Below are positions 444 to 51,718 of a stretch of DNA of 64,000 nucleotides, one piece after another. Positions within the stretch are counted from its first letter, which is position 1; every line of letters starts with the position of its first letter. The stretch is from NCBI GenBank assembly GCA_041690135.1, contig JAWLHY010000001.1:64001-128000 (forward strand), given 5' to 3'. A program made the translations under genes and the position numbers. A model generated the notes under the pieces. That model was not told the origin of the DNA. It saw nothing but the letters and a program-made list of their open reading frames with translations, and did no database searches. This DNA comes from Armatimonadota bacterium. Lineage in GTDB: Bacteria; Armatimonadota; SYMT01.

Positions 444-456
444 AAGATTGGGCCGC

Positions 457-4374: not shown

Positions 4375-4495
4375 GGCCAAGAGAACGTTATACTCCTCTC
4401 CGTGGAGTCACACGGAAGCCCCTCGACAGGGCGGGCTATCGGCGCCTGCGACATCTCCCCTCTCCATGCGCAACAATCGGAAATCAAGCAACGCC

Positions 4496-9453: not shown

Positions 9454-9466
9454 CGGTAAGAGCGGG

Positions 9467-10450: not shown

Positions 10451-10453
10451 GAG

Positions 10454-11623: not shown

Positions 11624-11714
11624 TCTCGACAACCGAACTTCATCAGGCTACTATTCATGGTAGCCGGCAACCGGCCGTTCCGAACCGGAGCGAGCCCTCG
11701 ACCGGGAGTTTCTT

Positions 11715-13526
11715 ATGACGGCAACGCTCCGGAATCTCCGCCCCCACCTGCCCCTGCTGATCGCCGCGCCAATCCTGCTGGCGCCGGTGCTTTTCGTACC
11801 GCAAGAGGGGCCATGGCAGGGGCTGCGCTGGTTCCTGGCGCAGGCGGTAGGGCTCGTCTTCCTCGTGTACCTGGCCGCCCGCGCGAGAGGTTCCGTCCAG
11901 GAAGCACGTTCTTTCTTCCTCACCGGGCCCAACCTGCCGATCCTGCTGCTGCTGGCCTGGGCGGGTGCTTCCTTTCTCACCTCCGCGCCCGCCGCGGGAC
12001 GGGGACGCGAGATGGCCCTGGTGGAACTCCTGCGCCTGGGTACGGGGGCGATCCTTTACTTCGCGGTCGCCTACGGAAACTCCCGGCGCAGCGCTTTGAA
12101 CGCCTGGACCCATCTGCTGTTGGGCTGCGCGGTCCTGGCCGCCCTGGCGGGGCTCGTCACCAGCACCCAGCAAGAAATCGGATGGGCGACCGGGGCGTAC
12201 GCCAACCCCCAACTCCTGGCGGGATTCCTCGTGCTGCTGCTTCCCTTCGCCGGGGTGTACGCCCTTCAGGGCCGGATGGACCTGCGCCGCCTCCTGGCGA
12301 CCGTCGCTCTCGTGTTCGTGGTGGGAGCGCTGCTGGTCACCCGGAACCGGAGCGCCTGGCTGGGATCCCTGACGGGGCTCATCCTCCTTGGCGGCCTCTG
12401 GCTGCGGTCCGTCTCCCTGGCCGAGCTGGCCCGCCAGCGGCACCGGTGGATGATGCCCCTCATCATCGCAGCCGTGGGAGGCGGGTTGTTCCTGACGTTT
12501 AAGCCAGATACCGGCACCCTGGTCGAAGCCCGCGCCGCCACGCTGCTCGCGCCGGGACAGGAACCGTCGTTCCAGTGGCGCCTGCGCATGTGGGCGGCCG
12601 GCTGGGACATGGTGACCGCCCGGCCGCTGACCGGCTGGGGCGTGGGCTCGTTCCCGCGATTGGTGGGGGACTTCCTGCCGGAGGCACCCGCGACGGTGCA
12701 GGTGGAAGAGGCCGGCCCTTCGCTGGCCAGCGTTCCCCACAACGAGTATGTCCAACTGGCCGCCGAGTTGGGCGTACCGGGCCTATTGCTTTATCTCGCC
12801 CTGTTCCTCGCCTTCTTCCGGCTGGGACTCCGGTTCACCCGCACCGCCGAGAGTGAGACGCGAAAGTGGCTCGCCATCGCCTGCATGGGAGCTGTGGCCG
12901 CGCAGAGCATCGATGCGCTGGGCAACCCAGCCTGGCGGTTTGGGGACGTGGCCCCCTTGTTCTGGCTGGTGCTCGGCCTCGGCGTGGCGGCTACCCGAGC
13001 CCAGCAGGCGGGAGAAGCGAGCCCCATCGCCGAGCCGGGCGAGACGACGGGGCTCGCACCCCGCACCCCCATCTGGCGCTGGAGCTGGCAGGCGGCCTCC
13101 CTGGTCTGCGCCGTCGGCCTGGGCGCCTCCGCGTTCGGCGCCACCGTCGGCGGCCAACCGGGCATCCTCCGCGGGTACTACGACCCACGCGCGACGCCCG
13201 ACCTGGTTCTCAGCCGCACCACCCTCAGCTTCGGAACCGTCCGGGTAACGGGGCGGCGACGCCCGCCCGTCGCCGTGAAGACGCTCCGGATCACGTCCGG
13301 TGGCGAGCGCGGCGGCCTGATCCTCGGCCACCTGACCCTGGCTCCCGGATCTCCCTTCGAGCTGATCGGCGGCAACGACTTCCGCCTGGTGAAGCCCCGC
13401 TCCCAGAACTTCCGGTTCCGCTTCCGTCCCACCCAGCCGGGCACCTACTCGGTTCCCGTGGTCGTGACGTGCAACGATCCGGAAACGCCGGAGGTGGTGG
13501 TGACCCTGGTGGGGACAGCGTTGTGA
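11715..13526 (+). CDS. O-antigen ligase (Wzy_C) family membrane protein with a C-terminal Ig-like (ASH/choice-of-anchor D-like) domain
   Basis: Many TM helices, YANPQLLA, TRNRSAW, R-x-x-x-W...PLTGWGVGSF, PHNEYVQLAAELG; tail LSFGTV...FRPTQPGTY...NDP...VTLVGTA. Confidence 0.88.
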   Translation: MTATLRNLRPHLPLLIAAPILLAPVLFVPQEGPWQGLRWFLAQAVGLVFLVYLAARARGSVQEARSFFLTGPNLPILLLLAWAGASFLTSAPAAGRGREMALVELLRLGTGAILYFAVAYGNSRRSALNAWTHLLLGCAVLAALAGLVTSTQQEIGWATGAYANPQLLAGFLVLLLPFAGVYALQGRMDLRRLLATVALVFVVGALLVTRNRSAWLGSLTGLILLGGLWLRSVSLAELARQRHRWMMPLIIAAVGGGLFLTFKPDTGTLVEARAATLLAPGQEPSFQWRLRMWAAGWDMVTARPLTGWGVGSFPRLVGDFLPEAPATVQVEEAGPSLASVPHNEYVQLAAELGVPGLLLYLALFLAFFRLGLRFTRTAESETRKWLAIACMGAVAAQSIDALGNPAWRFGDVAPLFWLVLGLGVAATRAQQAGEASPIAEPGETTGLAPRTPIWRWSWQAASLVCAVGLGASAFGATVGGQPGILRGYYDPRATPDLVLSRTTLSFGTVRVTGRRRPPVAVKTLRITSGGERGGLILGHLTLAPGSPFELIGGNDFRLVKPRSQNFRFRFRPTQPGTYSVPVVVTCNDPETPEVVVTLVGTAL

Positions 13527-13605: not shown

Positions 13606-14082
13606 AGCGTGTTGCGTAAGAGACTTGCAGTAGCCGGGTTGCCGGCCACTGCACCGAACTCGAGCCCAGGTGTGGCGTTTGATGTGCGGGAGGTAGGGCA
13701 GGCTCGCCGTTGTGTCCCTCGCACCGAACCCGTACCCGTATTGCCGTGTGGGACCCGTGGTTAACGGCCTGTGCTCTGCCCTTGTACCCGCAGATGTAGG
13801 GCGGGATCTCCGTTCCCGCCGGGCCATGGACAATTACCCGTCGTGCCATGTGGGACTCGACATCTATGTTGGTCTACGAACCAAGACAGGCGAACCGCCC
13901 GGACCTTATTGGGCCACGCTCTTGTTTGTTTCCCGACATCGGGTGCCGAGCAGATATGATTGTAGGACGAACGGCGCCTGTCTCCGACGTCAATCTTGTT
14001 CTTCCGCGTGTTTCCGTGTGTTCCCATACGGGCAAGCTCGCGGGCCTATTCGGTTCCCCGATTCCGCCGTCCTGGGCTTCAA

Positions 14083-15531
14083 ATGATTACGCCCTCCCTT
14101 CCCGAACCCTTTCTCACGGCACCCGGAAATCCAGAGACGGCGGACCTGCCGGAAAAGAAGGTCTCCTTCTGGGAACTGGCGGGACCGGGCGCGATCCTGG
14201 TGGGCCTCTCCATCGGGGCCGGCGAGATCATGCTCTGGCCGTACCTGATCGACCGGTTCGGGCCGGGGATCGCCTGGGCCGCGGGGTTGGGGGTCTTCCT
14301 CCAGTTGTGGGTGAACCTGGAGATCGCGCGTTACACCGTCGCCACCGGGGAGACCGTGTACACCGCGCTGGGCCGGGTGACCCGCTGGTTCGGGCCGGTG
14401 TTCATCCTGTTCAACGTGTTCGGCTGGATCGCCCCGGCCTGGGCCATGGCCTCGGGACTGGCGCTGAAGACGCTGCTGGTGGGGCCGGACGGGTGGGGGA
14501 GCGGAGCCACCTGGACCGCTATCACCTTCGCCCTGGTGGCCCTGGCCTTGTTCGGCCCCAGGGTCGTCTACTCCGGCGTTGAGAAGAGTGTGAGCTTCCT
14601 GGTAGGGGTGGTATCCCTGGGCCTGCTGGCCGTAGCGCTGGCGGTAGGCCGAGGTGAGGACTGGTCCGCCGTGGGCCGGGGACTGGTGAGCTTCGGCCAC
14701 GTGCCCGCCGACCTCGACATCAAGACCCTCTTCATCGCCATCTCAGCGGCCGGGGCGGCGGGCACCGCCAACCTTTTCTACGGCTTCTACCTGCGCGACA
14801 AGCACATCGGCATGGGCGCGCGCCTCCCGGAGATGCGCAACCCGCTGCGCGACCGGGTGGAGAAAGAGCCTACCACCGGCTACCTCTACCCGGAAACGCC
14901 GGAGAACGCCCACCGTTTCCGGGCGTGGTTCCGCCACGTCGCCACGGACCAGGGCCTCTTCTTCTGGGGCCTCAACTCGTTCACGATCATCCTCTTCATC
15001 TTCGTGGCCACGGCGATCCTGCGGGACACGCCGGAGGTGATGAAGCAGGGGCAGGTGATCGGCGCGCAGGCGGCGGCTCTCGGTTCCGCCCTGCCTGGAA
15101 TGTTCGGGCCGTTCTTCCGCGTATTGTTTCTACTGGTGGGCTTCGCCACGCTGTTCAGCACCCAGATCGCGCTGGTGGACGGCGTGTCGCGGTCGATCTC
15201 CGAGATCCTGTACGTGCAGTTCCCGCAGGCACGCGGATGGGAGCACTCTCGCTGGTACCTGGCGATTGCGATCACCTGGATGTTCTGCAGCGCCGGACTG
15301 GCGGCATTCCTGGAGGCGCGGGGGATCACCGAGATGGGCTTCCTGTTCAATGCCGCCTACGTGGGCGGCATCTGCATGGCCGTGTACACACCAGTGCTGC
15401 TGTGGGTGAACCACCGTCGGCTGCCGCCCTCGGCCCGACCGGGTCGGCTGTGCACCGTAATGACCACCCTGGCCGCGCTGTTCTACGTGACCTTTGCCAT
15501 CGGCAGCATTTGGTGGGAGATTTCTGGATAG
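14083..15531 (+). CDS. Nramp-like (YcsG-type) divalent cation/solute transporter
   Basis: GPGAILVGLSIGAGE, EIARYTVATGE, ATLFSTQ; about 11 TM segments. Confidence 0.82.
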   Translation: MITPSLPEPFLTAPGNPETADLPEKKVSFWELAGPGAILVGLSIGAGEIMLWPYLIDRFGPGIAWAAGLGVFLQLWVNLEIARYTVATGETVYTALGRVTRWFGPVFILFNVFGWIAPAWAMASGLALKTLLVGPDGWGSGATWTAITFALVALALFGPRVVYSGVEKSVSFLVGVVSLGLLAVALAVGRGEDWSAVGRGLVSFGHVPADLDIKTLFIAISAAGAAGTANLFYGFYLRDKHIGMGARLPEMRNPLRDRVEKEPTTGYLYPETPENAHRFRAWFRHVATDQGLFFWGLNSFTIILFIFVATAILRDTPEVMKQGQVIGAQAAALGSALPGMFGPFFRVLFLLVGFATLFSTQIALVDGVSRSISEILYVQFPQARGWEHSRWYLAIAITWMFCSAGLAAFLEARGITEMGFLFNAAYVGGICMAVYTPVLLWVNHRRLPPSARPGRLCTVMTTLAALFYVTFAIGSIWWEISG

Positions 15532-19238: not shown

Positions 19239-22200
19239 TCAATCCCTGGGCGGGGAGGCGATCCGCCGCAGGATCCCGGCCACTCCATCGTCGTCCGTGC
19301 CGATGAACAGGTCGCGGGTGCCGTTCCCCGGCTCGCGGATGGCCAGGCTTTCGACTTTGACCCCGTCCAGGGTCCCCAGGGGGCGGGCGGTTTCGAAGAT
19401 GTTCACCACCGTGCTGCCTTCCGCGTCCCGTCCCAGGCGCCCGATGCGGAAGACGTGGCTCCGGAACGGCCCGTGGTCCCCGAGATCGCTAACGCCTGCG
19501 GCATAGATCCATCCTTCCGAATCGATCTCCAGCGCCGTGATGTGCCGGCGATGGGGTCCCTTCAAGCTCGGAGCGGCATACGGCTTGCAGTCGTGGCTGA
19601 TGATAGTCCCCGAGCGGATCTCCCCCCAGTGGATCACCGTTTGGGTTTCACTCTCCCCGCGTTCGCCAAAGAGGAGCATCAGCCGGTCACCCATCCAGAA
19701 CGCAGCCGTCCCCTCGATGTTCCGGACCGTCTTCGGAAGGTCACCTTCGTGGTAGAGCCGCGCTTCCCCATCCCCGGTAAGCTCTGCCGTGAACACCCGC
19801 CGGAAGCGCGGATTGACCCCACTCTCCACCAGTAGGAACCGGGGCTTACCGGGTCCCTCGCCGGGCTTGGGCGGGATGCGGGCAATACTCTCCAGATCGT
19901 AAGGGGCCGGCTCCACCCCCTTGATCTTCAGCGGAGTAAACTGGCCGGTGTGCTCGTTCACCAGGCTCAGCCGCGCCTCCCCGTCTTTGGTGGTATCGTG
20001 CAGCACAAGGAAACGCTCGCCGTCCAGCCACGCGGCCCCGCTCAGATCGCGCGGGCAGGCGGAAGCCTTGGCTGGCGGCTGAGGGGCGGGCGCCGGCTCC
20101 ACGGGGACAGGACTCTTTACCTCGGGCTTCTCTTCCAGCGGCTCCATCAGGAACGCCGGCGGCTCGTCGCCAACCTCGGGCCGGCGCGGGACATCCACCA
20201 GCAGGTCGACCAGCTCGGCGACCGATGGGTAGATCGCGGTCTGCCCCAGGATGACGCTCTCCTGCACCACGCCTGCCTTGCTCGCCTGGCGGGTGAAGTA
20301 CCCGAGAATGGGGAGGTCCTTCAGGAGGGGAAGCTCGCGGACGAACGGAATGCCGCCCGTCCGGCGCTCGGGCAACCCGAGCTGCGAGTTTACCCCAAAG
20401 CGAGAGACCTCTCTCACTTCCAGGTTGGAGAGCTGGACTTCCGTGTTGACGGTATGCCGGTCCACCCGCGGGATGGACGGGTTGACGGTGCCGTCGGGCT
20501 CGCGCACCCGGACCGTGGCGGCATGGTCGAAGCGGAACCGAAGTGCCTGACCGGACGGGTCAAAGATCGGGGTAATCTTGAAAACGTCCCCGGTGTTGAG
20601 GCTGTACACCTCCCCCGGCGGTTCCTTCGGCTGCTCCTGAAGCAGGCTGAGCAGGCCCATGGCAGCCCCGATAACCGGGAGTGACGTGGTTCCGGCAAGG
20701 TTGGCCGCATTGGCCGTGGTCGCGGCCGTTACCCCCGCCCCGGCGGCCCGCGAGACCCGATCGGGCGCAAAGAAGGAGTTGTTGACCCCCTGGGCAAGCT
20801 GCCCAAGCTGTTGAGCCTGCTGCAGGAAGTCCTGTGCGCCCGCCAGTTCCACGTCGGCGGAAGCATTCGGTGAGACCCGCGCCACCAGACGGTTCGTGGC
20901 AAGGATAGAAGTGCGCTGGATCAGCCCGAGGTTCACGCGGGGGGCCGTCCCTCCGAACAGGCCGGCAATGCGGTCTCCCAGGCGGGTGCCCGGACCCGGT
21001 TTGTCGTGGATGGCGTCCTGGAGCCCTTGCAGGGTGGGGGCGACGAAGTAGTGGTCCAGGTCGTCCTCGGTGATGATCATCAGGCGCTTGATCATGTCGT
21101 CGGCCGCCGCCACGCGGGCTGTGGCCTGCGTCAACGTATTGCGGTTGCCTTCGGTGCCGGCCAGGTCCCAAGCCATGCGGTCGGCTCGGATCAGGACACC
21201 CCGCCCCGCGAGATCACCTCCCTTCATCCGCAGGGTCCCTCTGCTGTCGAGTTCGAGGAGTAGCGTTTTCGCGCCAAGCTGGCGGTAGCTGGGAGGGATG
21301 TCACATGGCTGCTTCACCCTTGCATCGATCTCGCGGAAATCCGCGGCAGAGTCCACGTGCGAGCGGCTGAGCCACCCAATCAACGGCAGATAGTCCTCTC
21401 GGTGCTTTCCGGCGCCGTCCCTGGTCACATCGACTTTCTTTCCGTTCGTCCGGCCCTTCCAGGCAAGGCTGCGATCGACCTGCTTGAGCAACCCGCGAAT
21501 CTCGGAGGCCACCGAGTAGCGTGCCTTGGCCTGGATAGCCAGCAAGACCTCGAGCTGGTTCGCGGTCATCTCGTCGTCGTTGAGGCCGGCGGTGCGGGCG
21601 TTCAACGCGCCGAACAGCACCTTGGGCATGGCGGGAAAAGCCGTGGCCCGCGATCCGTTCGCTCCGGCAGAACCCGTCACCCCATTGCCTTCCTGGCCGG
21701 TGATCAAGGTCCGCAGCACCTGAAGTGAGTCGTCCAGAAACCGGGCGTACTCCTTACGACGCTGCTCTTGTGCCTTCTGGTCGTCGTGGTTATCGGCGTC
21801 GCCGTTGATTTCGCGACGGCTGGAGAGGTTCACCAACTCGCGAGAAAAATCGCGCAGTACGCGGAGACGGGAAGAGCGTCGCCCCAGGGTCAGCACGAAC
21901 ATGGTCTCGCCAAGCGTCGTGCAGTGCGCCGGATCGGGGATGGTCCAGCGGGTTACGTATTCCAGGTCCTTGAGGTAAAGTCGAAGTTGCCTCACATTCC
22001 CCTGGTGCTCAAGAAACTGCTTCCGTTCCGCAGATGGCAGCTCCTGCAACTCCGACTCCGGCCGCTCTTCCGCCAGGGCGAAGGCGGCAACGCGCATCCC
22101 ATCCAGCATTGCCGACACCTGCTCGGTCACAACGCCAAGTGCATCGCGAAAGCTCGTGAGCTCGTCGAGCTTCCGTGCGTGGACCACTGCTGTGTTGAGA

Positions 22201-25200
22201 CGCTCCTGAAACACCGTTTGCTGCTGTTCAAGGCGGGGCGACCGTGATGTAGCATCACCTTCGGCCTTTCGTGTCTCTTCTTCGAGCACCTGGCATGACG
22301 AACCACAGGGGGAGACGGGCGGTTCGTTCTCTTCGTCCGAGGGCAAAGGCCCGTAACCCTGGAGATACGCGCGGTCTTCTTGCTTGAGGGACAGCTTTCC
22401 CAGCCGAAGCCGTTCGCCTCGCGCTTCATCCAGCCGATCCTGGACTTGCTGCGCAACCTTCCGGATAGATAAGGTAGCACCCTGCAGTTGTTTAACGAGT
22501 GTGTCGATTTGCGTGGAGCACTTTTCAAGACTTTTAAGTTCTCGCAGCCACAACTCGACTCGCGGCAGTGATTGGTTCCGGGCCTCGTCGAAGGCCGCGG
22601 AGGCAAACTCATCGAGCAGTTGCCGGTCTTTGCGCAGGCCCTTGATCTCTTTGGAACCCTCTTTCCCTTCCAACTTGAGCTTTTCGATTCGGTAGTTCAG
22701 GCCGGCGATCGCCTCGGTGAGATGGGCAATGTCCTGGATGTCGCCATGCAGCCGCAGCACCTGGGTGGCCGCGGACCACCAGGCGCGGTAGGGAAGCTTG
22801 AAGCCGAGCCGCTCGCGGATCTCCGGTGGGTAGAAGAAGTACCGGTTCAAGCGGGCGTCCAGCTCCAGAGCGGTGCCCCGGGTCAGGTTCCGCATTCCCT
22901 GGGCTACCTGGTTGACTTCCTTGTTAACGGAGTTCCGCAGCACCTCCTGGATCGTCGTGATGTTGTTGCGCAAGTGGCGCAACTCCGTGTTGATCATCCG
23001 GACGCGCCCGTTGATGGCGTTAGGATCGCGGCTGTTGAGTTGCATCGTCCAGAGCGTGACGCGCGCCTGCGGTGCGGGCCGGTCGAAACCGGCAATCACG
23101 TCCAGGGCCTTCTCCACATCTTCCGGAAGGCCGCGGATGAAGAGGGTTTTGCTGTCCGCGAAGGCGTACATCATCACCCGCTTGATCGGATCGGTGCTGC
23201 GGAAGTTTGCCGGGGCGAAGTAGATCGGCGTGTTCTCGCGGGCCGTGCCGAACGCTTCCGCCTCGATCCGGGCCTGGAACACGATGCTCTGCCGGAGGCC
23301 TGCCACGGCTGTCTGCAGTTCCGAAAGATCCGACCGCACCGCCGCAAGGTTCTGGGCTTTCCCCTCCTTCTCACCCGTCAGCAGGTCCAGCTCGTTCTTC
23401 TGATTGGTGTGCGCACCTTCGGCGGCCTCTACCAACTTGCTCTGGTTCTTCACCCGCTCCGTAGCTGCGTCATCATCCGCCTTGGCTTCCGCGGCAAGCT
23501 TCTTTGCGTCGGCAAGCGCCGCCTCGGCCTTCACCAGCGCTTCCGCGGCCCCTTCTTCGTTGGCATCCTTCTTCTGCCGCGCCTCCGTCACGGTCTGCTC
23601 CTTGCGGGTGACGTCGGCATCCTTTTTGCCCTTGGCGGTAGCGGTCTCGACCTGCTTGTCCTTCAGCTCCGACTCGGTGGATCTCAGACCTGAGAGTGTC
23701 TTCGCAGCCGCACTCACCTTCTGGCCCTGGATCCGGATCTTCTCCTCGAGCACCACCACCTGGCGCTGGAGGTCCGCGACCCGGCCCTGCTTTTCGAAGA
23801 GCTCCTGCTCACTCTTCAGCAGCTTGTTCTGAAGGTTCTGCCCGCGTGCAACTGCAACCCGTCCTTCCGGATTGAGGATGGTCGTCGCGCCGTTGAGGGT
23901 CTGCATCAGGCGCGGCACGTTGTCGAAGTAGAACAGGCGCACCTGTTCATTCACGAAGTGGTCGACATCGCCCGTGAACGACTCCTCCAACAGCAGCACT
24001 GCCTGCGCGAGGAGGTCGCGCTGCGAGCGCGCGTCCTTATAGGCCCGGTTCGCGTACTCGATGGGAGTCTCGTACCGTGTATTCAACTGCGCGGCCAGGA
24101 GCGGCCAGTCCTGGTCGGCCCGCCGGAGGTCGGCCACCAGGGATTTCGCCGGAGCAAGAGCTTCGTGGGTCTCACCAAGATCGAGTGCCGGATCGCGCTT
24201 ATCCTTGAGGCTATCGCGGATCTGCTTGATGATGGCATCTCGCCGGTTGCCCACCTTCAGGTTCTGCTCGCCAGCATAGTCCCGCATGCGAGCCCAAAGC
24301 CGTTCGAAGTTCCCCACGCACTGGTCACATTCATTGCTGTTGGTGACCACCGTTTTCAGATAGCTATTGCCGGTATCGGTCTCTTCCTTCCAACCTCCGG
24401 GTAAAAGGCCGGCTGCCAGGGTTTCGGCCGCTCCTTTGGAATAGTCGTTACCCGCCTGGAGCGGTGCGGCAGCCTTCTTCATCGGCGGATTCAGGGCTTC
24501 CGCCTGCCCAAACGCGGGAAGTTGCACCGCCAGAGCGCCGTGGATCCCGGCGTCTTTCCGCTCCTTCAACAGGGTCGGAAAACCGGTGACGAGGAAGCGC
24601 TGCTGATGGGACCCCGCGACTCGCTTCGCGGCCGTAAGATAACCGTTGGCTGCCGTCCGGAGCTTCTTATCGCCTTCGTGCAGCTCTTTGAGCCGGACCA
24701 GCAGGCCGTTCAACTGGGTGTGCGCGTTCCTCGCCACATCGTATCCCGGCACTTTCGCGTCGAGCGCCGTTTTCGCATCGGCCACGGCCTTCTCCGCCGT
24801 CGCCAGTTCCTTCTTCTTTTCTGCGATCTTGGCCTCGTCCTTCGGATCCGCTTTCTCGAGGGCGGCCAGTTCCTCGGCACGAGCTTTCCGGCTCGTCTCC
24901 GCGGCAGCCAGTGCATCGGCCTCGGTCTTGCGCCGGGAGTCGGCCTCGGCAAGAGCATCCGCCAGAGACTTGATGGTCTTGCGGAGCTCACTGTTCTTTG
25001 CGGGATCCCGGGGGTCTTCCTGGAGATGCTTCTGGAGTTCTGCGTCCAGACCGTGCTCGCCGCCGATCGGAGTCGCTTTCAGGACCTCCGCGGCCTCCTG
25101 GAGTTTTGCAATGCCTTCGGCATCGAGCGCGGCATCTTTAGCTGCTGCCAGCTTCGCCTGCAGCTTATCGCCGTTGTCCGCGACGGGTTTTACTTCTCCG

Positions 25201-25352
25201 GCAAAGGTGATGGCCTTGCCCGTGGGTCCCGCCAGCTTGGGGTCGAGGTTGGTCTGTGCCGACAGCTCGACCAGTCCCAGGGCGAGGGACAGTCCGATGC
25301 AGACCGGAAGGAGGCGCACGAGGTGCAGCACGGGACGGAATGGGTATCGCAT
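19239..25352 (-). CDS. Giant secreted protein with coiled coils, split secretin-like motifs and a C-terminal beta-propeller-like domain
   Basis: Signal peptide; TLFIRGLPEDVEKALDVIAGFDRPAPQARV (secretin N3/core junction); LPLLKDLPILGYFTR...ESVIL (secretin C-terminal signature); Pro-rich linker, then DLSG/DLES/NIEG/KVES repeats. Confidence 0.72.
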   Translation of the reverse strand: MRYPFRPVLHLVRLLPVCIGLSLALGLVELSAQTNLDPKLAGPTGKAITFAGEVKPVADNGDKLQAKLAAAKDAALDAEGIAKLQEAAEVLKATPIGGEHGLDAELQKHLQEDPRDPAKNSELRKTIKSLADALAEADSRRKTEADALAAAETSRKARAEELAALEKADPKDEAKIAEKKKELATAEKAVADAKTALDAKVPGYDVARNAHTQLNGLLVRLKELHEGDKKLRTAANGYLTAAKRVAGSHQQRFLVTGFPTLLKERKDAGIHGALAVQLPAFGQAEALNPPMKKAAAPLQAGNDYSKGAAETLAAGLLPGGWKEETDTGNSYLKTVVTNSNECDQCVGNFERLWARMRDYAGEQNLKVGNRRDAIIKQIRDSLKDKRDPALDLGETHEALAPAKSLVADLRRADQDWPLLAAQLNTRYETPIEYANRAYKDARSQRDLLAQAVLLLEESFTGDVDHFVNEQVRLFYFDNVPRLMQTLNGATTILNPEGRVAVARGQNLQNKLLKSEQELFEKQGRVADLQRQVVVLEEKIRIQGQKVSAAAKTLSGLRSTESELKDKQVETATAKGKKDADVTRKEQTVTEARQKKDANEEGAAEALVKAEAALADAKKLAAEAKADDDAATERVKNQSKLVEAAEGAHTNQKNELDLLTGEKEGKAQNLAAVRSDLSELQTAVAGLRQSIVFQARIEAEAFGTARENTPIYFAPANFRSTDPIKRVMMYAFADSKTLFIRGLPEDVEKALDVIAGFDRPAPQARVTLWTMQLNSRDPNAINGRVRMINTELRHLRNNITTIQEVLRNSVNKEVNQVAQGMRNLTRGTALELDARLNRYFFYPPEIRERLGFKLPYRAWWSAATQVLRLHGDIQDIAHLTEAIAGLNYRIEKLKLEGKEGSKEIKGLRKDRQLLDEFASAAFDEARNQSLPRVELWLRELKSLEKCSTQIDTLVKQLQGATLSIRKVAQQVQDRLDEARGERLRLGKLSLKQEDRAYLQGYGPLPSDEENEPPVSPCGSSCQVLEEETRKAEGDATSRSPRLEQQQTVFQERLNTAVVHARKLDELTSFRDALGVVTEQVSAMLDGMRVAAFALAEERPESELQELPSAERKQFLEHQGNVRQLRLYLKDLEYVTRWTIPDPAHCTTLGETMFVLTLGRRSSRLRVLRDFSRELVNLSSRREINGDADNHDDQKAQEQRRKEYARFLDDSLQVLRTLITGQEGNGVTGSAGANGSRATAFPAMPKVLFGALNARTAGLNDDEMTANQLEVLLAIQAKARYSVASEIRGLLKQVDRSLAWKGRTNGKKVDVTRDGAGKHREDYLPLIGWLSRSHVDSAADFREIDARVKQPCDIPPSYRQLGAKTLLLELDSRGTLRMKGGDLAGRGVLIRADRMAWDLAGTEGNRNTLTQATARVAAADDMIKRLMIITEDDLDHYFVAPTLQGLQDAIHDKPGPGTRLGDRIAGLFGGTAPRVNLGLIQRTSILATNRLVARVSPNASADVELAGAQDFLQQAQQLGQLAQGVNNSFFAPDRVSRAAGAGVTAATTANAANLAGTTSLPVIGAAMGLLSLLQEQPKEPPGEVYSLNTGDVFKITPIFDPSGQALRFRFDHAATVRVREPDGTVNPSIPRVDRHTVNTEVQLSNLEVREVSRFGVNSQLGLPERRTGGIPFVRELPLLKDLPILGYFTRQASKAGVVQESVILGQTAIYPSVAELVDLLVDVPRRPEVGDEPPAFLMEPLEEKPEVKSPVPVEPAPAPQPPAKASACPRDLSGAAWLDGERFLVLHDTTKDGEARLSLVNEHTGQFTPLKIKGVEPAPYDLESIARIPPKPGEGPGKPRFLLVESGVNPRFRRVFTAELTGDGEARLYHEGDLPKTVRNIEGTAAFWMGDRLMLLFGERGESETQTVIHWGEIRSGTIISHDCKPYAAPSLKGPHRRHITALEIDSEGWIYAAGVSDLGDHGPFRSHVFRIGRLGRDAEGSTVVNIFETARPLGTLDGVKVESLAIREPGNGTRDLFIGTDDDGVAGILRRIASPPRD

Positions 25353-25394: not shown

Positions 25395-26723
25395 TCAAGG
25401 GTGCAGCCCCCGGCCGTGCGGGGTCAGGTCGACCTGGGCAATTCCTTGCTCCCCGCGGGCCAGGTAGCGGAGAGTGCGGTTATTCTGCCACCGGGGAGTG
25501 GTCAAGTGAGCGCTGTGCCCGGACCACTCAACCCCATTCACAACCACCAATCGCGCGGGATCGCTTACGGCGTACGAGAGCCACCGGCCGTCGGGGCTGA
25601 AGCGAAGACTGTTAGGCTCGATGCGCCGGTAGACCTTGAGCGGCCGGCCGTCAAGGATGACAGCCTGTTGCCCGGGGGACAGGCTCGCGACATAGGCAAG
25701 GCGGCGGCCGTCGGGGGAGAAGAGGAGGCTGGAGTCGTCGATATCCGCGAGACGCGGGCCCAGGTTGCCTCCGTTTACGAGCCGCCACTCGCCACCGGAC
25801 TCTGCGGGAAAGACCATCTGGGGTCCCACGGGGTTGAAATGAATCGAGCCGACCCGAGTGTAGGGTCCCCGTTCCATCTCCTCATTTGAGTGGGTCCGAT
25901 CCGTTTCAGCGAGGATGACGCGCTCCCGGCCGTACTCGTCGGTGGCGACGTAGGCCAGCAGCCTACCGTCACTGCTGAATACGGGCCGGTCAACAGAAGG
26001 CGCCGGACGGGACCAGGGGACGCCGTCCAGGTAGATTTTCTGGGTTCGCCCATCATCCCCCATGAACGCAATTCTTTTTCCATCCGGACTGAATACCGGA
26101 TCTCCCACCGCCGCAAAACCCGTCCAACTGTGGCCCTGGTTCGTCTCGACCCGCCATGACGAAGCATCGCGCGCCGCGAGGGCAAGTGAGCGCCCGTCCG
26201 GACTGAAAACCAGCGAAGAGGCGCGGATCTCCTCGAGATGACAGAGGGAAGTTCCATCGCAAACGGCGAGCGACTTGCGCCCACTCCGACCTACAAAAGC
26301 GGAGTGGCGTCCATCGGCACTGACCCGGACGCTCGCAGGATCGATGGAGTGGTAGGCCGGCCCTTCGTGGAAGCCGACCACCACGTGCATCCCTTTGGGT
26401 GAACGGGCGACGTAGGTGATCTGGTGGTTCTCGGTAAAGCGAATGGTCGCCGGTTCGATCGAGTAGTAGGGGCGTCCCGGCACTCCGTTTATAGTGACCC
26501 AATCCACGCCGGCCCCGCGGACGTGGAAGGCCACCCGGTTGAGATCCCGGGAAACGACGGCCGCGCTCCGCTTCCCTTCTGGAATGGCTCCGAGGGGCGC
26601 GATAACGGCGGTGAGATGAGCGCCGCGAGTGCCCGCTTCGCCGGCAGGCGGCAGGGAGGCGGCGCCAACGGTAACCGCAATCAATCCCGAACGTGAGATA
26701 AGGGTGCACATGGATCTGGGCAT
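25395..26723 (-). CDS. Secreted WD40/TolB(PD40)-like beta-propeller protein
   Basis: Repeated FSPDG(R/K)xxA(Y/F) motifs; N-terminal signal peptide. Confidence 0.85.
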   Translation of the reverse strand: MPRSMCTLISRSGLIAVTVGAASLPPAGEAGTRGAHLTAVIAPLGAIPEGKRSAAVVSRDLNRVAFHVRGAGVDWVTINGVPGRPYYSIEPATIRFTENHQITYVARSPKGMHVVVGFHEGPAYHSIDPASVRVSADGRHSAFVGRSGRKSLAVCDGTSLCHLEEIRASSLVFSPDGRSLALAARDASSWRVETNQGHSWTGFAAVGDPVFSPDGKRIAFMGDDGRTQKIYLDGVPWSRPAPSVDRPVFSSDGRLLAYVATDEYGRERVILAETDRTHSNEEMERGPYTRVGSIHFNPVGPQMVFPAESGGEWRLVNGGNLGPRLADIDDSSLLFSPDGRRLAYVASLSPGQQAVILDGRPLKVYRRIEPNSLRFSPDGRWLSYAVSDPARLVVVNGVEWSGHSAHLTTPRWQNNRTLRYLARGEQGIAQVDLTPHGRGLHP

Positions 26724-26731
26724 CGCGAGCC

Positions 26732-29170
26732 TCAGTGAGATGCGGAGTTGGGGCGAGCCCGGCCGGTCAGTCGCACCGGCACCGGGCGAGGGGCGCCGGC
26801 CGGCGTGATCGTAAGAGTGGAGCGGAAGCTTCCCGGCAAGGCAGGATCGAAATGAAGCATTAACGTACGGCTCTGGCGCGGCAACAGGTGGATCACGGCA
26901 GGAGAGCTCTCCACAAAGAACGGAGCTACCGGAGTGCCGATCGTCAGCGTCATAGCCCCCTTGCCGGTATTGCGCAGGCGCAAGCGCCGTGTGACCGGAG
27001 CCGCGCCGACCCGAAGGGTGCCGAAACCCACCGCCCGCCGCACGGAGAGACGGCCGAGATTCTGTGGACTGATCTCGAGCACGAAGGCATCCGAAAGGCC
27101 TCCTGCCGGATTGCCGCTCACACTCTGGAGCGGCTTCTCCAGAGGGAACCCCTCGTAGAATCCGGTTTCGCGAATATCAACCGACGCCGTGCGGCCGACC
27201 ACCAGTACGCGGCGATTAGGGGCCAGTCCGATACCCCTGCCGGAGTCCGCTCCCAGCCCGCCCAGGTAGGAGGCATACTCGATCTCCGCCCCCGCCCGCC
27301 GGAGCGCAACGACAAAGGCGTCGGACGACCCCGATGCACCTAGCTGCAAGGGATTGACCTGCGGGAAGTCGCCGGAAACCGTCTCACCGGTAAGGTAAAC
27401 CGTCCCATCGGCGCCGACGGCCACCGCGCGAGCCCGGTCGTCACTTGAGCCGCCAATGAAGGTGGAGTACAGAGTCGTGGTTCCTTCGGCGTTCAGCTTC
27501 AGCACAAAGGCGTCGCTTCCGCCGGAGTAAGGGAAGAGCGTGTCCACGCAGGGAAAATCTGCCGAACCGGCCCCGCCCGCCAGGTAAACGCTCCCGGCGG
27601 CATCCAGGGCAAGGGCATGGACCTCGTCTTCGCTGCTGCCGGCCAGAAAGCTCAAGAACTCCAGCCCCGTCCCGTCTTCCTTGAGCCGCGAAACGAAACC
27701 GTTCCCGCCAGTGTTCGCCGGCGCCGTCACCCCCTCCATGGCTGGGAAGCTCTCGGAAATCGTACGTCCGGCGATCCAGGCTTTGCCGTCGGGCGTCACC
27801 CCCACGGCGTTGGCACGGTCGTCCTGGGCTCCCCCCACGTAAGTGAAGTACTGTCGCTGGCCCGGCACGAGCCGCGCGACAAAGGCATCCGAAGCTCCAC
27901 CGATTAGAGTCACGGTGGTATCTCCCGTAACCAGCGAAGGAGAACTGGTGGATCCCGCCAGGTAGAACCTGCCTTGAGGATCGATCGCCAGTCCGAGCGC
28001 ATCGTCATCCCCCGCTCCACCGAGGAACGTGGAGGAGACAATGTCGCGGCCCTGCGGAGATAGGACAGTCAGGAAGCCATCCGACTTGCCTCCCGCGAAA
28101 AGCTGCTGCGAAGCATCCCGGCGCGGAAAATCCTCGGAGCCGGTGGAGCCGGCTACAGCGATCCGCCCCTCGCGGGTGAGAGCGACGGCATTGCCGAATT
28201 CGTCGCCGGACCCACCCAGGTAGGTGCAGAAGACGAAGGAGGTGCGGGTTCGGTTCAGTCGCGCAATGAAGACATCGCGCATGCCGGCATTCGCGGGCTG
28301 GCCGGGAGAGAACGTGGGAAACTGAAGGGATGCCGTGGTACCTACTACGTAGGCATTACCGGCGGCGTCCACCGCCACCGCATTCGCCTGGTCCGGTCCT
28401 TCCCCGCCGAGATAGCTGCTGAAGAGCAGCACGGGATCGATCACCTGCGCCCGCCGCCTGTCAAAGGGACCGATCTTGAAGCCGATCTTCTTACCGGCAC
28501 GGACTTCAAAGCCGGCCGGGATTTCCCGCCGTTTCGCACCGACGCCCTGGTACGCCACGGGCCGCTTCTGAACAAAGGAAAAGCCACCCCGCGTGATCCG
28601 GAGATCGCCGGAAGGCTCGATTCGGACCGTATCCGCCCCTTCGATCTCCAGTTGCAGCATCGCTGGATCGACGCCCGGTTGCAACCGGAGATCATACTCC
28701 AGGTCTCCCCGGTTCGTGTAGTACACGAGATCCACACCGGGAAGTAGGTTCCGCGAACGGACGCGATGATAGGCGGGCACATCGGCCCGCCAGCGGGAAG
28801 GATCGCTGCCTACGAGGGAGTGGATCCGGGTCCGGATGCGCTCTTCACCGTAGAAGCGGCTCTTTCGGACGCCCGTGAGGCGCATCCGCGCACCCCCCTG
28901 GGTGGAAGACGGCCCGGGCAGCAGCATGGAGCCGTCTTCCAGCAGCAGAAGGTGGCCGGTACGCCCGCGGAACGCGAAGGCAACGCCAGCGTTCCACTGG
29001 CCTACGTTCTGCTCGAACGCCGGTAGAGGTCGGAGGGAACCCGGATCTCCGGCTTCGCCGGCGCTGGCAGCCGCGCCGGCAGGGTGTGGCCCGGCGAGTG
29101 TGGCGAGTACTGCCGCAAGTGTGGGAAGAACGCAGCGGGCAGGCAGCGGGAAAAACCTAAAAGTATGCAT
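26732..29170 (-). CDS. SBBP-repeat beta-propeller protein with a C-terminal ASH-like Ig domain
   Basis: FEQNVGQ, LEYD...PG, VIDPVL, seven (Y/F)LGGxxxD...AVDxxG...G.T.S.xFP repeats; tail GFGTLRVG...LRNTG...VRLTG. Confidence 0.88.
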   Translation of the reverse strand: MHTFRFFPLPARCVLPTLAAVLATLAGPHPAGAAASAGEAGDPGSLRPLPAFEQNVGQWNAGVAFAFRGRTGHLLLLEDGSMLLPGPSSTQGGARMRLTGVRKSRFYGEERIRTRIHSLVGSDPSRWRADVPAYHRVRSRNLLPGVDLVYYTNRGDLEYDLRLQPGVDPAMLQLEIEGADTVRIEPSGDLRITRGGFSFVQKRPVAYQGVGAKRREIPAGFEVRAGKKIGFKIGPFDRRRAQVIDPVLLFSSYLGGEGPDQANAVAVDAAGNAYVVGTTASLQFPTFSPGQPANAGMRDVFIARLNRTRTSFVFCTYLGGSGDEFGNAVALTREGRIAVAGSTGSEDFPRRDASQQLFAGGKSDGFLTVLSPQGRDIVSSTFLGGAGDDDALGLAIDPQGRFYLAGSTSSPSLVTGDTTVTLIGGASDAFVARLVPGQRQYFTYVGGAQDDRANAVGVTPDGKAWIAGRTISESFPAMEGVTAPANTGGNGFVSRLKEDGTGLEFLSFLAGSSEDEVHALALDAAGSVYLAGGAGSADFPCVDTLFPYSGGSDAFVLKLNAEGTTTLYSTFIGGSSDDRARAVAVGADGTVYLTGETVSGDFPQVNPLQLGASGSSDAFVVALRRAGAEIEYASYLGGLGADSGRGIGLAPNRRVLVVGRTASVDIRETGFYEGFPLEKPLQSVSGNPAGGLSDAFVLEISPQNLGRLSVRRAVGFGTLRVGAAPVTRRLRLRNTGKGAMTLTIGTPVAPFFVESSPAVIHLLPRQSRTLMLHFDPALPGSFRSTLTITPAGAPRPVPVRLTGRARPNSASH

Positions 29171-29527
29171 CTGGCTGGGGTAACATCGTTCGGCCCCGCA
29201 AAGTGCGGGCTGCCGGCTGCTTGTTTCCGGCCGCTGTAATACACCCCTTCGCCTGATCTGGCTATTTTCGTCCCATTCCACTTACCTGGTGTCCGCGAGC
29301 TTAGCTCGGCTGAACCGGCAGGTAGAGGTCCTAATTGCCTCGTCGACCGGCACCTGGCTGCAATTGTTCACATGGATTTCGAACGGGGGGCCGGGCGGCG
29401 CCCTTCCGGAAGCGGCGATACCGCACCGCTACGCGCAGGAGATTGCCTGTGAGGCAAGTCAATACAAGTCCGTCTGACTGCACTCCCGCCCGTCACGCCC
29501 CTGGGCAAAAAATCCCAGAATCCAGCT

Positions 29528-29800
29528 TCAGCTCTCGCCGTGCACCTCTCCGAGTCTGGGCGCCCTTTGGGTTATCTCCGTAGTGAGAACATCTTCCGAT
29601 CGGAGCCAGCCGTTAACGGCGGCCCAGGCGATCATCTGGGTGAGGTAGCGGCAGCCGGACTTATCCCGGAGGTGGTCCAGGTGAGCGTCGACGGTATGGG
29701 GCGAGATGTACAGCGACCGGGCCGCTGCGGCGATCGTGCCGTGGACGGCGATCGCCTGCAGAACCTCGATCTCTTTGGGGGTGGGGGTATTCTGGCGCAT
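29528..29800 (-). CDS. Stand-alone LuxR-type HTH transcriptional regulator
   Basis: TPKEIEVLQAIA...AARSLYISPHTVDAHLDHLRDK...A..NGW. Confidence 0.85.
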   Translation of the reverse strand: MRQNTPTPKEIEVLQAIAVHGTIAAAARSLYISPHTVDAHLDHLRDKSGCRYLTQMIAWAAVNGWLRSEDVLTTEITQRAPRLGEVHGES

Positions 29801-30278
29801 CGGGCTTTCTCCGTAGGTTCGGGGGAGGGGCACGATCGCCTGACGCGGGGCCTTCGCTTCTTTTGTTGCTTGTCCCCTTAGATCCCATAAGGCGGCCGTT
29901 TTGTTGGGAAGGGAGCAAGAATTTTTTTCCAGGGGCCTTGGCGTTCAGGCGAAGGGCAGGGGGGCTCAGGCGCTCCCGAGGCGGATCCGCACTCCATTCA
30001 ACGCTGCATGCCTCCCTCATCGGTCCGCACGGTAGTACGCTCCGTGGCGCGGTCGTTTTTACGGTGGAAACGGCACCTCGATGCTCGTGGGCATGCAGGC
30101 AACCGGTAGACAGGCGTTCAGACTTCAAGGAAACAGGCCTTCGGGCTCTCCCGCCGGTCGTGTACATTCCGGTGGCCAGTCCTCATCCTCCTGATCCTTA
30201 TCCTCTCCGTCCTTATCCCTATCTCCATCCTCATCGGCCGCAGGCGCCAGGAGGGGGCAAGGGAGCGGGGGGAGAATC

Positions 30279-30322
<44 letters not shown>

Positions 30323-30380
30323 ATAGGTGGGCATGTGGGGGATGAGGTTGGAGATAGGGGCGGAGTTGGGGAGTGAACGA

Positions 30381-31269
30381 ATGAACGAGAACCGGCTGGG
30401 ACCGGGGACCCGGCTGGGGTCATACGAACTGGAAGAGGAACTGGGTCGGGGCGCGCTGGGGGTGGTGTACCGCGCGCGGCACCTGCACCTGGAGCGGCCG
30501 GCGGCCATCAAGGCGCTGCACGCCCACTGGACCCACGCCCCGAATTTTGTGGAGCGGTTCCGGGCCGAGGGACGCGTGCTGGCCCGGCTGGAACACCGGA
30601 ATATCGTGAGGGTCTACGACGCGGGAGAGGAGCACGGGGCCTTCTATCTGGCGACCCAACTCCTGGAAGGTCGGAACCTGGAGCAGTTGCTCTCCGAACC
30701 GGTACCCCACCGGGCGGTGATCCATGTGGGACGGCAGGTAGCCGCGGCGCTGGCCTATGCCCACGCGCGCGGCGTGGTCCACCGTGATGTGAAGCCGGCA
30801 AACCTGATGGTTGGGGATCGCGGCGAGGTCACGTTGATGGACTTCGGGGTGGCGCGAATGCTGGATGCCCCGGGGATGACGTTGCCCGGCAGCTTCGTGG
30901 GGACCCCCTTTTACATGGCGCCCGAGCAGGTGCAGGGCCGGCCGGCGGATACCCGCTCCGACCTTTATGCGCTGGGAGTGGTGCTGTATGAGATGCTCAC
31001 CGGGGCGCCCCCTTTTCCAGGCCCGAGTTCCGAGGAAGTCTTCCATGCCCACCTGAACCAGGCGCCACCCCCGTTGGACACCGGTTGTCCGGAATGGCTG
31101 CAGGCGGTGGTGCTGAAGACGCTGGAGAAGAACCCGGCGGCGCGGTTTCAGAGCGCCGAACAATTCCGCGCGGCGCTCTCTTCGGAGGGCATTCCGGAAC
31201 TCCTCGCGGCCGCTGGACTGGCCCTCCCGAACCTATCGCAGCCGGTGGACTCGGAGCGAACGGCCATAG
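30381..31269 (+). pseudogene. 5' part (Ser/Thr kinase domain) of a kinase-cyclase-FHA gene interrupted by IS1380
   Basis: GRGALGVVY, AAIK, HRDVKPAN, DFG, APE; the frame joins the 33008..33942 segment after IS removal. Confidence 0.9.
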
Positions 31270-33003
31270 CCCGAATTATTCATCGGGTGCCTAAAAGGAA
31301 AACAGTCTGTGCGAGGAGGATAGAGGAAGTGCCAACAACCCTTATCTCTCGCCAGACTGTTCGCCCATGTCTTCGCAACCAGCCTGTTCCTTTCCTCTCC
31401 TGGACCGTAAGCCGGTCGTCGCCGATTTCTCCGCCGGACACCTCTCCTCGGATGGCGGCCTCTTGCTGCTTGCGGAGGCCAACCGGCGTCTGGGGCTGAC
31501 CGCTGCGCTCGCCGCCGCGTTGACGGACCACCGGGCACCCGCGCAAGTGGAGCTCCCTTTACCCACCCTGGTCGCCCAACGGGTCCTCCAGATCGCGTGC
31601 GGTTACGAAGATGCCCTGGACGCCCAGACCCTGCGCCGCGATCCGCTGTTCAAAACCGCCGTGGGCCATGCCCCCCAGCAAGGGCGGGATCTGGGCAGCC
31701 AACCCACCCTCTCTCGCTTCGAGAACGGCGTCACCCGCCAGGAGTTGCTCCGGGCCGCCACCGCGCTGGCGGAGTTCGTCCTCGACCAGCACCGGGAGCA
31801 GCGGGTGGTCCGCGTGGTTCTGGACGTGGACGCGACAGAAGACCCCACCCACGGACAGCAGGAGCTGAACTTCTATAACCAGCACTACCGCTCTCACGGC
31901 TACTTACCCCTGTTGGTCTACGCGACCTTCACGGTGGAAGTAGCTCCGGGCGTGCACCAGGAACTGCCGGAACAGGAGCTCTTGGTGGCGCTCTTGCGGC
32001 CCGTCAATAAGGAAGCTTCCTGGCGCACCACCGCGGTCCTCCGGCGGCTGGTGCCGCACCTCCGGCAGCGCTGGCCGGAGGTCGAGATCTTGCTCCGGGC
32101 CGACAGCGGCTTCGCACGCCCGGAGTTGTATGCCTGGTGTGAGCGCGTGCGGGTGGGCTACTTGCTGGGGCTCGCCAAGAACGCCGCCCTGGTACGGCGG
32201 ACCCAACCGTGGTTGGCCGACGCCCGAGCGGCCTACCAGGCGCAGCCGGAGCCGGAGGCCGGGAGCGGGCGCCCGGCGGTGCAAGTCTTTGGCGAGTATC
32301 TCTACCAGGCGGGGAGTTGGGACCAGGAGCGACTGGTCACGTGCAAAGCCGAGGTGATGGGCTTGGGAGACAACCCACGGTGGCTGGTGTCCGGAGGCTT
32401 GCCGCCGGATCTCCAGGACCCGGAAGCCCGCTATCGGTTCTACTGTTTGCGCGGGGATCGGGAGAACCGGATCAAAGAATGGAAGTGCGACCTACGGGCG
32501 GACAAAACGAGTTGCTCCCGCTTCGCGGCGAACCAGTTCCGGCTATTGCTCCACACGGCGGCTTACCTGTTGTGGCAAGCGGTGCGGCGGCGTCTCCTGC
32601 GCGGGACGGAGTGGGCCACCGCGCAAGTAGGGACCCTGCAGTGTAAACTGGTCAAAGTGGCGGCGCGGGTCCGCGAGAGCCATCGGCGGGTCTACGTGCA
32701 GTTGGCGAGCAGTTACCCGTGGCCATCGCTGTGGAAGCGGTGTGTCGCGCGGTTAGACGGGTTGTAGCGGCCCGGTCGGGAGCGCTGCCGCCGACCCCGG
32801 ACCGCCCCGTGCTCTGCACGCGGCGGCGGTTTTGGGCAACGGGGTCCGGGCGATGCCTGCCCGCGGGGCGCGTCCTGGGTGCATGCGCCCGTTGGGCCTG
32901 CCCTCAGGACGGCCCAACTTCCCAGGCGCGGCCGTCCGGGGCTGTTTGGCCTACCAGCAAACCCTTGCAAACGCCAGTTGGCAGCACTGATGAATAATCC
33001 GGG
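31270..33003 (+). mobile_element. Complete IS1380-family insertion sequence (1734 bp)
   Basis: TIRs CCCGAATTATTCATC (31270) and GATGAATAATCCGGG (ends 33003), 14/15 match; 4-bp target duplication ATAG at 31266-31269 and 33004-33007. Confidence 0.95.
31367..32767 (+). CDS. IS1380-family DDE transposase
   Basis: SSDGGLLL, GYED, SQPTLSRFEN, LDVDAT, RADSGF, YCLRGDRENRIKE, FAANQFRL. Confidence 0.96.
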   Translation: MSSQPACSFPLLDRKPVVADFSAGHLSSDGGLLLLAEANRRLGLTAALAAALTDHRAPAQVELPLPTLVAQRVLQIACGYEDALDAQTLRRDPLFKTAVGHAPQQGRDLGSQPTLSRFENGVTRQELLRAATALAEFVLDQHREQRVVRVVLDVDATEDPTHGQQELNFYNQHYRSHGYLPLLVYATFTVEVAPGVHQELPEQELLVALLRPVNKEASWRTTAVLRRLVPHLRQRWPEVEILLRADSGFARPELYAWCERVRVGYLLGLAKNAALVRRTQPWLADARAAYQAQPEPEAGSGRPAVQVFGEYLYQAGSWDQERLVTCKAEVMGLGDNPRWLVSGGLPPDLQDPEARYRFYCLRGDRENRIKEWKCDLRADKTSCSRFAANQFRLLLHTAAYLLWQAVRRRLLRGTEWATAQVGTLQCKLVKVAARVRESHRRVYVQLASSYPWPSLWKRCVARLDGL

Positions 33004-51548: not shown

Positions 51549-51718
51549 CCCAGCGTTAATCTCGCGGAAATGCCTTCACAACCTGGGGATGCGATTTTAT
51601 ACCTCATGGTGTGAAGAGCGGGAGTGGAGCCGGTTCGGGAGTAGCACCGGCAGTGGATCGCGGCGGATCGCCTTGCCCACGGCCCCGCTCGAGAGAAGAA
51701 TTCAGGAAAGGAACACCC

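Follow-up and report, generated by a model that had tools for sequence, protein, structure and literature searches.

The 64,000-nucleotide window analysed here (positions 64,001 to 128,000 of contig JAWLHY010000001.1) carries a giant gene, at window positions 19239..25352 on the minus strand, whose product, P0001, is probably an exported and highly divergent secretin-superfamily protein with, as we infer, a ring architecture. Its family is large, has no annotation and is made up of giant secretins with split domains. Secretins form the outer-membrane gates of several major bacterial machines, and the way they are built is regarded as well mapped; here, at least 530 clusters make up a family in which the ring-building and pore domains are interrupted, the coupling domain is missing and no partners are linked, which points to an unexplored secretin design or use. 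The open reading frame (ORF) for a protein of 2037 aa claimed in the first-pass annotation of this DNA was present and begins with an ATG start, and its third-position GC content (0.78) is similar to that of the adjacent genes. All features of the giant gene described below lie on the minus strand and are given in window coordinates.

The kinship with secretins proposed in the first-pass annotation is supported by the predicted fold, by sub-threshold Pfam matches that recur across the family and by the conservation of motifs. Two AlphaFold2 models were made, one of aa 700-1745 (hereafter the long model, built from 46 aligned sequences) and one of aa 440-800 (the N3 model). In the long model (mean predicted local distance difference test score, pLDDT, 73.4; predicted template modelling score, pTM, 0.75), three short strands and a helix at aa 710-757 are followed by a 13-residue strand (aa 762-774), by a stretch that is nearly all helix (aa 777-1465), and then by strands at aa 1473-1486, 1590-1597, 1603-1615, 1630-1642, 1646-1657 and 1695-1708. 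This order agrees with the earlier description of several hundred helical residues preceding beta-rich segments, and the model predicts a secretin-type beta sheet composed of the strand at aa 762-774 and strands between aa 1473 and 1708.

The first strand of the sheet, QARVTLWTMQLNS (aa 761-774, 23031..23072, from the long model), includes Q762, which is conserved in 99 of 102 sequences. In the N3 model, which was made without the C-terminal sheet, aa 757-776 are coil; the strand therefore pairs with the distant sheet, and the secretin domain itself is split. The segment that splits it (aa 775-1409, 21126..23030, based on the long model and alignments A1 and A2) is a mostly helical insertion of about 640 residues between the first and second secretin strands. 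The insertion has a variable middle at about aa 920-1059 and conserved blocks at about aa 1134-1150, 1262-1278 and 1318-1329. Across the family, the distance from the first secretin strand to the next conserved block ranges from 261 to 804 aa with a median of 376, and in P0001 it is 636. No named relative of the insertion was found with Pfam searches of fragments, and the best score of a language-model search with aa 1100-1465 (0.75) was within chance. A conserved core (aa 1410-1724, 20181..21125), recognized with Foldseek and Pfam, contains the other secretin strands together with the LPLLKDLPILGYF signature.

A Foldseek search of the PDB with the long model listed 29 rows down to rank 39, and every one was a secretin or a secretin-containing machine (InvG, GspD, XcpQ, PilQ, RcpA and pIV) with a probability of 0.96-1.00; five of them had E <= 0.001, and the first row of any other kind, MukBEF, had a probability of 0.06. 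The AlphaFold monomer model suggested as a check by the first-pass annotation therefore gave a predicted secretin-type sheet and a list made up of secretins, at TM-scores that were low and are weighed below. A three-copy complex prediction of aa 1465-1730, a construct that omits the strand at aa 762-774, gave a score of 0.00 with an uncertain fold of the partners, which counts neither for nor against a multimer.

The Pfam gathering cut-offs are 27.5 bits for Secretin (PF00263) and 28.2 bits for Secretin_N (PF03958). On P0001, PF00263 scored 15.5-15.6 bits (E 0.012-0.013) over aa 1673-1702, which align with profile positions 133-162 of 169, and Secretin_N scored 21.6 bits on the whole protein and 23.9 on fragments, so that both models appeared, as had been anticipated, and both remained under their cut-offs. 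The matches recur in relatives. PF00263 was found in 12 of 16 C-terminal fragments of family members at E <= 0.1 (best 1.1e-5), and three other Pfam families were matched in these fragments by one member each. Among 30 full-length relatives, PF00263 was matched at E < 0.001 by three, the best being P0014 (24.8 bits, profile positions 52-167 of 169), and Secretin_N was matched at E < 0.001 by 17, one of them above the cut-off. The nearest language-model neighbors of aa 1125-1745 were PF00263 clusters (score 0.87) from Lentisphaerota and Planctomycetota, which we treat as a lead only.

The four motifs quoted in the first-pass annotation are all present, LFYFDNVPRLMQTL at aa 473, TLFIRG at aa 736, FDRPAPQ at aa 756 and DLPILG at aa 1679. 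Their conservation in homologs had been named beforehand as a test, and they proved to be near-invariant in up to 102 sequences. In the C-terminal signature, P1681 is conserved in 102 of 102 sequences, G1684 in 100, the aromatic residue at 1685 in all 102 (W in 64 and Y in 38) and F1686 in 88. This Pro/Gly/aromatic signature, which we take to be typical of secretins, falls on PF00263 positions 133-162. Conservation is similarly high in the region upstream of the sheet, with R740 in 99 of 102 sequences, G741, D757 and P759 in all 102, L473 in 43 of 45 and Y475 in 42 of 45.

Directly ahead of the secretin sheet lies one N3-like domain, interrupted by two helices of roughly 100 residues apiece that form a hairpin. 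The first half of the domain (aa 464-494, 23871..23963) has a strand at aa 467-472 and a helix at aa 479-486 in the N3 model. The second half (aa 707-760, 23073..23234), which ends with FDRPAP, is defined by the Secretin_N match and both models, and consists of three strands and a helix (aa 710-756) in the N3 model. Between the halves is an antiparallel coiled-coil hairpin (aa 495-706, 23235..23870), for which the N3 model, with a pLDDT of 92, shows helices at aa 495-596 and 602-706, in agreement with the coiled coil of about 230 aa noted earlier at this place. The spacing between the halves is 120-407 aa in 108 listed family representatives, with a median of 192, and is 220 aa in P0001. Foldseek searches with the N3 model returned long coiled coils only (SMC arms, Tc-toxin channel helices and chemoreceptors), and the N3 assignment therefore rests on Pfam and topology. 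Based on the models, aa 464-760 would fit an N3-type domain with a hairpin insertion.

Relatives of P0001 were collected in an exhaustive HMMER search with alignment A2, a four-sequence profile of the conserved core (P0001 aa 1125-1745), and were counted as clusters at 50% identity. The search gave 530 clusters at E <= 0.001, 466 at E <= 1e-10 and 342 at E <= 1e-30; word-indexed searches reached few relatives (4 in one search and 27 in another). Most of the members listed are 1200-1800 aa long. The layout was surveyed in 150 listed representatives using block hidden Markov models for five conserved pieces. All five blocks occurred in the same order in 108 of them, and the block for the first half of the N3-like domain was found in 109; the rest, mostly shorter entries, were taken as fragments. 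Together, these data indicated that the split N3-like domain and the large insertions described in the first-pass annotation are real and are common to the whole family. The family misses the curated Pfam and NCBIfam cut-offs and therefore its members, where named by the source at all, are named "hypothetical protein" only. The term "orphan" used earlier thus does not hold for relatives and applies to linked partner genes only. The term "undescribed" has stood, as no description of secretins with these insertions was found in the open-access literature searched. No match to the core was found in plasmids using tblastn. Knowledge of the cargo and partners of the family might lead to a new system of export, uptake or envelope architecture among uncultured bacteria.

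At its N-terminus, P0001 has a hydrophobic segment that is likely a Sec signal peptide (aa 1-33, 25254..25352). In a Kyte-Doolittle analysis, aa 7-33 formed the sole segment above 1.6 in the 2037-aa protein, and no internal membrane-spanning segment was detected. A similar N-terminal segment is present in seven of ten relatives examined. Judging from sequence, the giant protein is likely exported via this putative signal peptide. The description of the protein as envelope-spanning stays hypothetical: the sole hydrophobic segment is N-terminal, and the mature protein would thus be without an inner-membrane anchor. We considered whether P0001 might be a lipoprotein and rejected this, as the only cysteine of the signal region, read from the sequence as LPVC, does not fit the lipobox. 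The next 430 residues (aa 34-463, 23964..25253) form an Ala/Lys/Glu-rich region that is weakly conserved in alignment A1, with a phmmer match in P0002 alone among 149 relatives. This region is assumed to be helical, based on its composition and on SMC/Rad50 coiled-coil noise matches; such noise was all that NCBIfam gave on the whole protein. A promoter and terminator scan around the giant gene gave nothing above shuffled sequences.

The conserved core is followed by a Pro-rich linker (aa 1725-1766, 20055..20180; 29% Pro and 17% Glu), as had been noted, and by a fused Phytase-like/DUF6929-like domain and putative beta-propeller (aa 1767-2037, 19242..20054), which was delimited by its stand-alone homologs. 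Elsewhere this domain is a separate secreted protein. There are 84 stand-alone homologs of 223-367 aa, and ten of these were aligned with the window segment as alignment A7 (11 rows). The ten are 34-41% identical to the segment, align over their whole mature part and share 57 invariant columns with it, and nine of them start with their own leader of 20-40 residues. The earlier claim of a propeller-like domain of about 270 aa finds support in weak sequence matches: the segment scored 15.7 bits with DUF6929 (PF22000, cut-off 27), 17.8 with DUF6910 (PF21851, cut-off 27) and 13.7 with Phytase-like (PF13449, cut-off 27.6). Phytase-like was matched by eight of the 11 rows of A7 at E <= 0.01 (best 9.9e-6), and the window row matched DUF6910 only. 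A PDB sequence search with A7 returned nothing relevant. The domain is absent from the 149 other listed family representatives, and the sister protein P0002, which is 60% identical to P0001, stops 40 aa past the core. In 25 of the 149 representatives the C-terminus is extended by more than 100 aa of other sequence, and these cases are scattered across the core tree, so the family is prone to gaining C-terminal additions. From these sequence comparisons, the C-terminal domain of P0001 is, in our judgment, a recent, lineage-specific fusion.

The surroundings of the giant gene were compared at three loci, namely the window (37 ORFs searched with Pfam, which covered ORFs of about 100 aa upward) and two related loci recovered by a scan of genome contigs, L001 (JANPLG010000124.1) and L002, which together have 21 ORFs. 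Genes for a secretion ATPase, a platform protein, a pilin or a prepilin peptidase were not seen among the 37 window ORFs and 21 locus ORFs, and no prepilin motif was found in stop-to-stop frames of at least 80 aa. The earlier statement that no type II secretion system (T2SS), type IV pilus (T4P), type III secretion system (T3SS) or Tad genes are nearby was therefore correct for the window ORFs. The term "stand-alone" rests solely on the absence of partner genes at these three loci, and partners could be encoded elsewhere.

In the window, the giant gene is the last of a same-strand row. The row is headed by a LuxR/GerE-type helix-turn-helix gene (29528..29833, minus strand; Pfam GerE/HTH_1), followed by a gene encoding an 849-aa protein with DUF7948, SBBP propeller and ASH domains (26732..29281, minus strand) and a gene encoding a 442-aa protein with PD40/TolB-like propeller repeats (25395..26723, minus strand). 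The gaps from the LuxR-type gene to the giant gene are 246, 8 and 42 bases. Both the 849-aa and the 442-aa proteins begin with hydrophobic leaders, and with the fused C-terminal domain of P0001 the row holds three propeller-type modules. We considered a conserved operon of the giant gene with the two propeller genes and rejected it, as both are absent beside the giant genes of L001 and L002. L001 has a secretin-like giant gene of 1726 aa next to cytochrome c maturation genes (CcmB/CcmE/CcmF-type) and genes for an SMC-like ATPase, a polysaccharide deacetylase and a 3-keto-disaccharide hydrolase. The neighbors in L002 encode a sugar kinase, a DHDPS-family protein and a RyR-domain protein. These neighbors differ wholly from those in the window with the exception of a LuxR-type homolog in L002 (8601-8831, plus strand; 50% identical over 76 aa, E 4e-22), which is separated from the giant gene downstream of it by about 105 bases; the LuxR-type gene is absent from L001. 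The comparison of homolog neighborhoods that had been proposed thus revealed no secretion or pilus genes in L001 and L002, and it showed the LuxR-type gene to recur in L002. This small gene possibly encodes a regulator dedicated to the family. Antisense ORFs in several frames within the giant gene (19836-24401, plus strand) match antisense ORFs of L001 and L002 by blastp, and these were taken as shadows of the conserved coding strand and not as genes.

Several observations weigh against the assignment of P0001 to the secretins. No Pfam secretin model attains its gathering score on P0001, and PDB sequence searches with profiles from three family alignments gave no hits (A2), coiled-coil noise (A3) and one unrelated match with an E of 0.18 (A5); because of this, P0001 is not called a secretin by curated sequence criteria. 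In the long model, 200 of the 1046 residues have a pLDDT below 50, including aa 1526-1587 in the beta region (aa 980-1045 is also a low-confidence stretch). The Foldseek matches had target-normalised TM-scores of 0.10-0.34 and root-mean-square deviations of 4-18 A over 122-310 columns; low TM-scores are expected for a monomer model with insertions, and the match is one of topology and not a close superposition. An N0 (STN/TonB-plug-like) domain was not matched by Pfam or NCBIfam in the whole protein or in aa 1-470 at E <= 10. In addition, the record of L001, which holds the closest relative, is titled "Actinomycetes bacterium", which, if correct, would place its giant gene in a cell without an outer membrane. 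That label is at odds with the secretin and the CcmE/CcmF-type genes, and either it or the binning could be in error. Based on the sub-threshold scores, the negative PDB searches and the low TM-scores, it could be argued that the secretin likeness is convergent or spurious and that P0001 is a coiled-coil surface protein of other ancestry whose C-terminal part is rich in beta strands. We consider this highly improbable, as it does not account for 29 listed Foldseek rows that are all secretins, with the first other row at a probability of 0.06, for the recurrence of PF00263 in 12 of 16 fragments when each of three other families matched one member, for the P0014 match along most of that profile (positions 52-167 of 169), or for a Secretin_N-like domain sitting exactly at the place of a secretin N3. 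It is almost as improbable that an assembly error or a frameshift has artificially joined two genes and so appended the C-terminal propeller: the domain does equal a complete stand-alone protein and is absent from P0002 and 149 other relatives, but the frame is open and continuous across the Pro-rich linker, and 25 of 149 representatives have other long C-terminal extensions.

If P0001 is a secretin, it could tentatively be regarded as an ordinary gate in the outer membrane that serves a type IV pilus, a type II secretion system or a Tad-like machine encoded elsewhere, with the helices adapting its length to a wide periplasm. The fold matches are to secretins of these systems. However, neither genes for an ATPase, a platform, a pilin or a prepilin peptidase nor a prepilin motif were found at any of the three loci, and P0001 has no detected N0-type domain, the part that contacts the inner-membrane platform and is usual in T2SS, T3SS and T4P secretins. 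In addition, the weak conservation of the N-terminal 430 aa would be unexpected in a docking surface. Precedents for such a gate are the repeated co-option of secretins by different filament machines (PMC6668835) and a solved pilus secretin, the 757-residue PilQ of Thermus (PMC5745081). A purely structural role, in which a secretin-derived ring in the outer membrane would carry long coiled coils as spacers towards the cell wall or the inner membrane, appears improbable. It would be in keeping with a long antiparallel coiled coil that is kept family-wide while varying in length (120-407 aa), with the lack of partner genes at the three loci, and with a Deinococcus outer-membrane barrel that reportedly has a coiled-coil stalk to the cell wall (PMC9388160). 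Against such a connector or spacer, no peptidoglycan-binding or SLH-type domain was detected with Pfam, and the strictly conserved core motifs suggest selection on the pore-forming part.

We therefore return to P0001 as a very divergent secretin of a split giant family. It is quite likely that the protein forms a secretin-type outer-membrane multimer. That the protein is part of a pilus- or secretion-type machine whose other genes lie elsewhere is possible, although we would stop short of calling it probable, and that it works without any such machine is rather doubtful. By analogy with solved secretins, 12-15 subunits would come together as a ring in which the sheets make up a gated outer-membrane pore. 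The N3-like domains might similarly form a ring below the pore, and the hairpins and helical insertions could extend from it as a long alpha-helical periplasmic cage or stalk, which for straight helices would measure roughly 15 nm (100 residues x 0.15 nm). The cage or stalk may replace the N0-N2 domains with which ordinary secretins reach to the inner-membrane platform. The fused C-terminal domain would be held at the periplasmic rim on its flexible Pro-rich tether, possibly as an accessory binding or enzymatic module. The lack of an N0-type domain and the weakly conserved N-terminus argue against standard coupling to a platform.

Classical secretins (GspD/XcpQ/PulD of T2SS, InvG of T3SS, PilQ of T4P, RcpA of Tad systems and pIV of phage) headed the Foldseek results for P0001 and share with it an N3-like domain directly ahead of the beta domain and an N-terminal export signal (both predicted in P0001), as well as the conserved C-terminal P-x-x-G-aromatic-F signature. 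P0001 differs from them in its length, 2037 aa compared with several hundred in solved secretin chains (Foldseek target lengths 231-609), in an N3 with a helical hairpin of about 210 aa in its midst, in a sheet split by about 700 helical residues, and in having no N0-type domain found, no linked secretion or pilus genes at any of three loci and Pfam scores below the cut-offs. TolC-type outer-membrane factors, which combine a beta barrel with a long alpha-helical periplasmic tunnel, offer a possible working analogy in that a beta pore would be extended by a long antiparallel helix bundle. They differ from P0001 in oligomer state and in the origin of the barrel, and no sequence or fold match to TolC appeared in any search of P0001 (Pfam, Foldseek). 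The PilQ of Thermus thermophilus reportedly spans a wide periplasm and gains its length by stacked extra N-domain rings, whereas the length of P0001 comes from coiled-coil hairpins and helical bundles within domains. That PilQ, a pilus and DNA-uptake secretin of 757 residues (PMC5745081), resembles P0001 in having an unusually long periplasmic part. Secretins of cyanobacteria and myxobacteria have also been presented as polysaccharide "slime nozzles" (PMC12475490), with a cargo beyond pili and folded proteins. These are ordinary PilQ/GspD-family proteins of type II systems, in contrast to P0001, for which no link to polysaccharide export was found. The Phytase-like/DUF6929-like stand-alone proteins (about 310 aa) align with the C-terminal 271 aa of P0001 over their whole mature length; relative to these, the domain in P0001 is without a signal peptide of its own, having lost it, and follows the secretin through the Pro-rich linker.

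At the far end of what P0001 could be, we speculate that it is a self-contained trans-periplasmic conduit, in which a secretin pore would be continued by an alpha-helical tube of 12-15 hairpins and insertions without a type IV filament machine. Such a hybrid would be unlike any known system, and we regard it as improbable. A weak hint to Planctomycetota as host comes from the replication initiator gene described below and from the language-model clusters; if it holds, this conduit could be the missing pore of their large outer-membrane complexes, the crateriform structures, which are treated in PMC11131199. A 2025 review ties macromolecule uptake of Planctomycetes to pili from these structures and still calls its mechanisms and players unknown (PMC12673574).

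The window contains several other genes. A replication initiator protein A gene (38391-39971, minus strand), carried on a contig of about 1.6 Mb, has its best plasmid matches in the Planctomycetes Planctomyces sp. SH-PL62, Frigoriglobus, Aquisphaera and Isosphaera (about 32% identity, 153-182 bits), with Deinococcus at about 100 bits, and may be an integrated plasmid remnant. A Ser/Thr kinase ORF (30327-31499, plus strand) runs at its 3' end into an overlapping DDE_Tnp_1_4 transposase ORF (31367-32767, plus strand; E 6e-133), and the kinase gene may have been truncated by an insertion sequence. At the start of the window (448-8953, plus strand) are tandem S8 subtilase genes of 1308 and 1552 aa with Big_7 domains, and a PPC domain in one. 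These are followed at 9404-13526 (plus strand) by HprK-related kinase-like, NTP_transf_5 nucleotidyltransferase and Wzy_C O-antigen-ligase-like genes, and then by an Nramp transporter gene (13996-15531). Further along, at 51611-54382 (plus strand), a single gene encodes a 923-aa fusion of GAF, DUF3417 and alpha-glucan phosphorylase domains.

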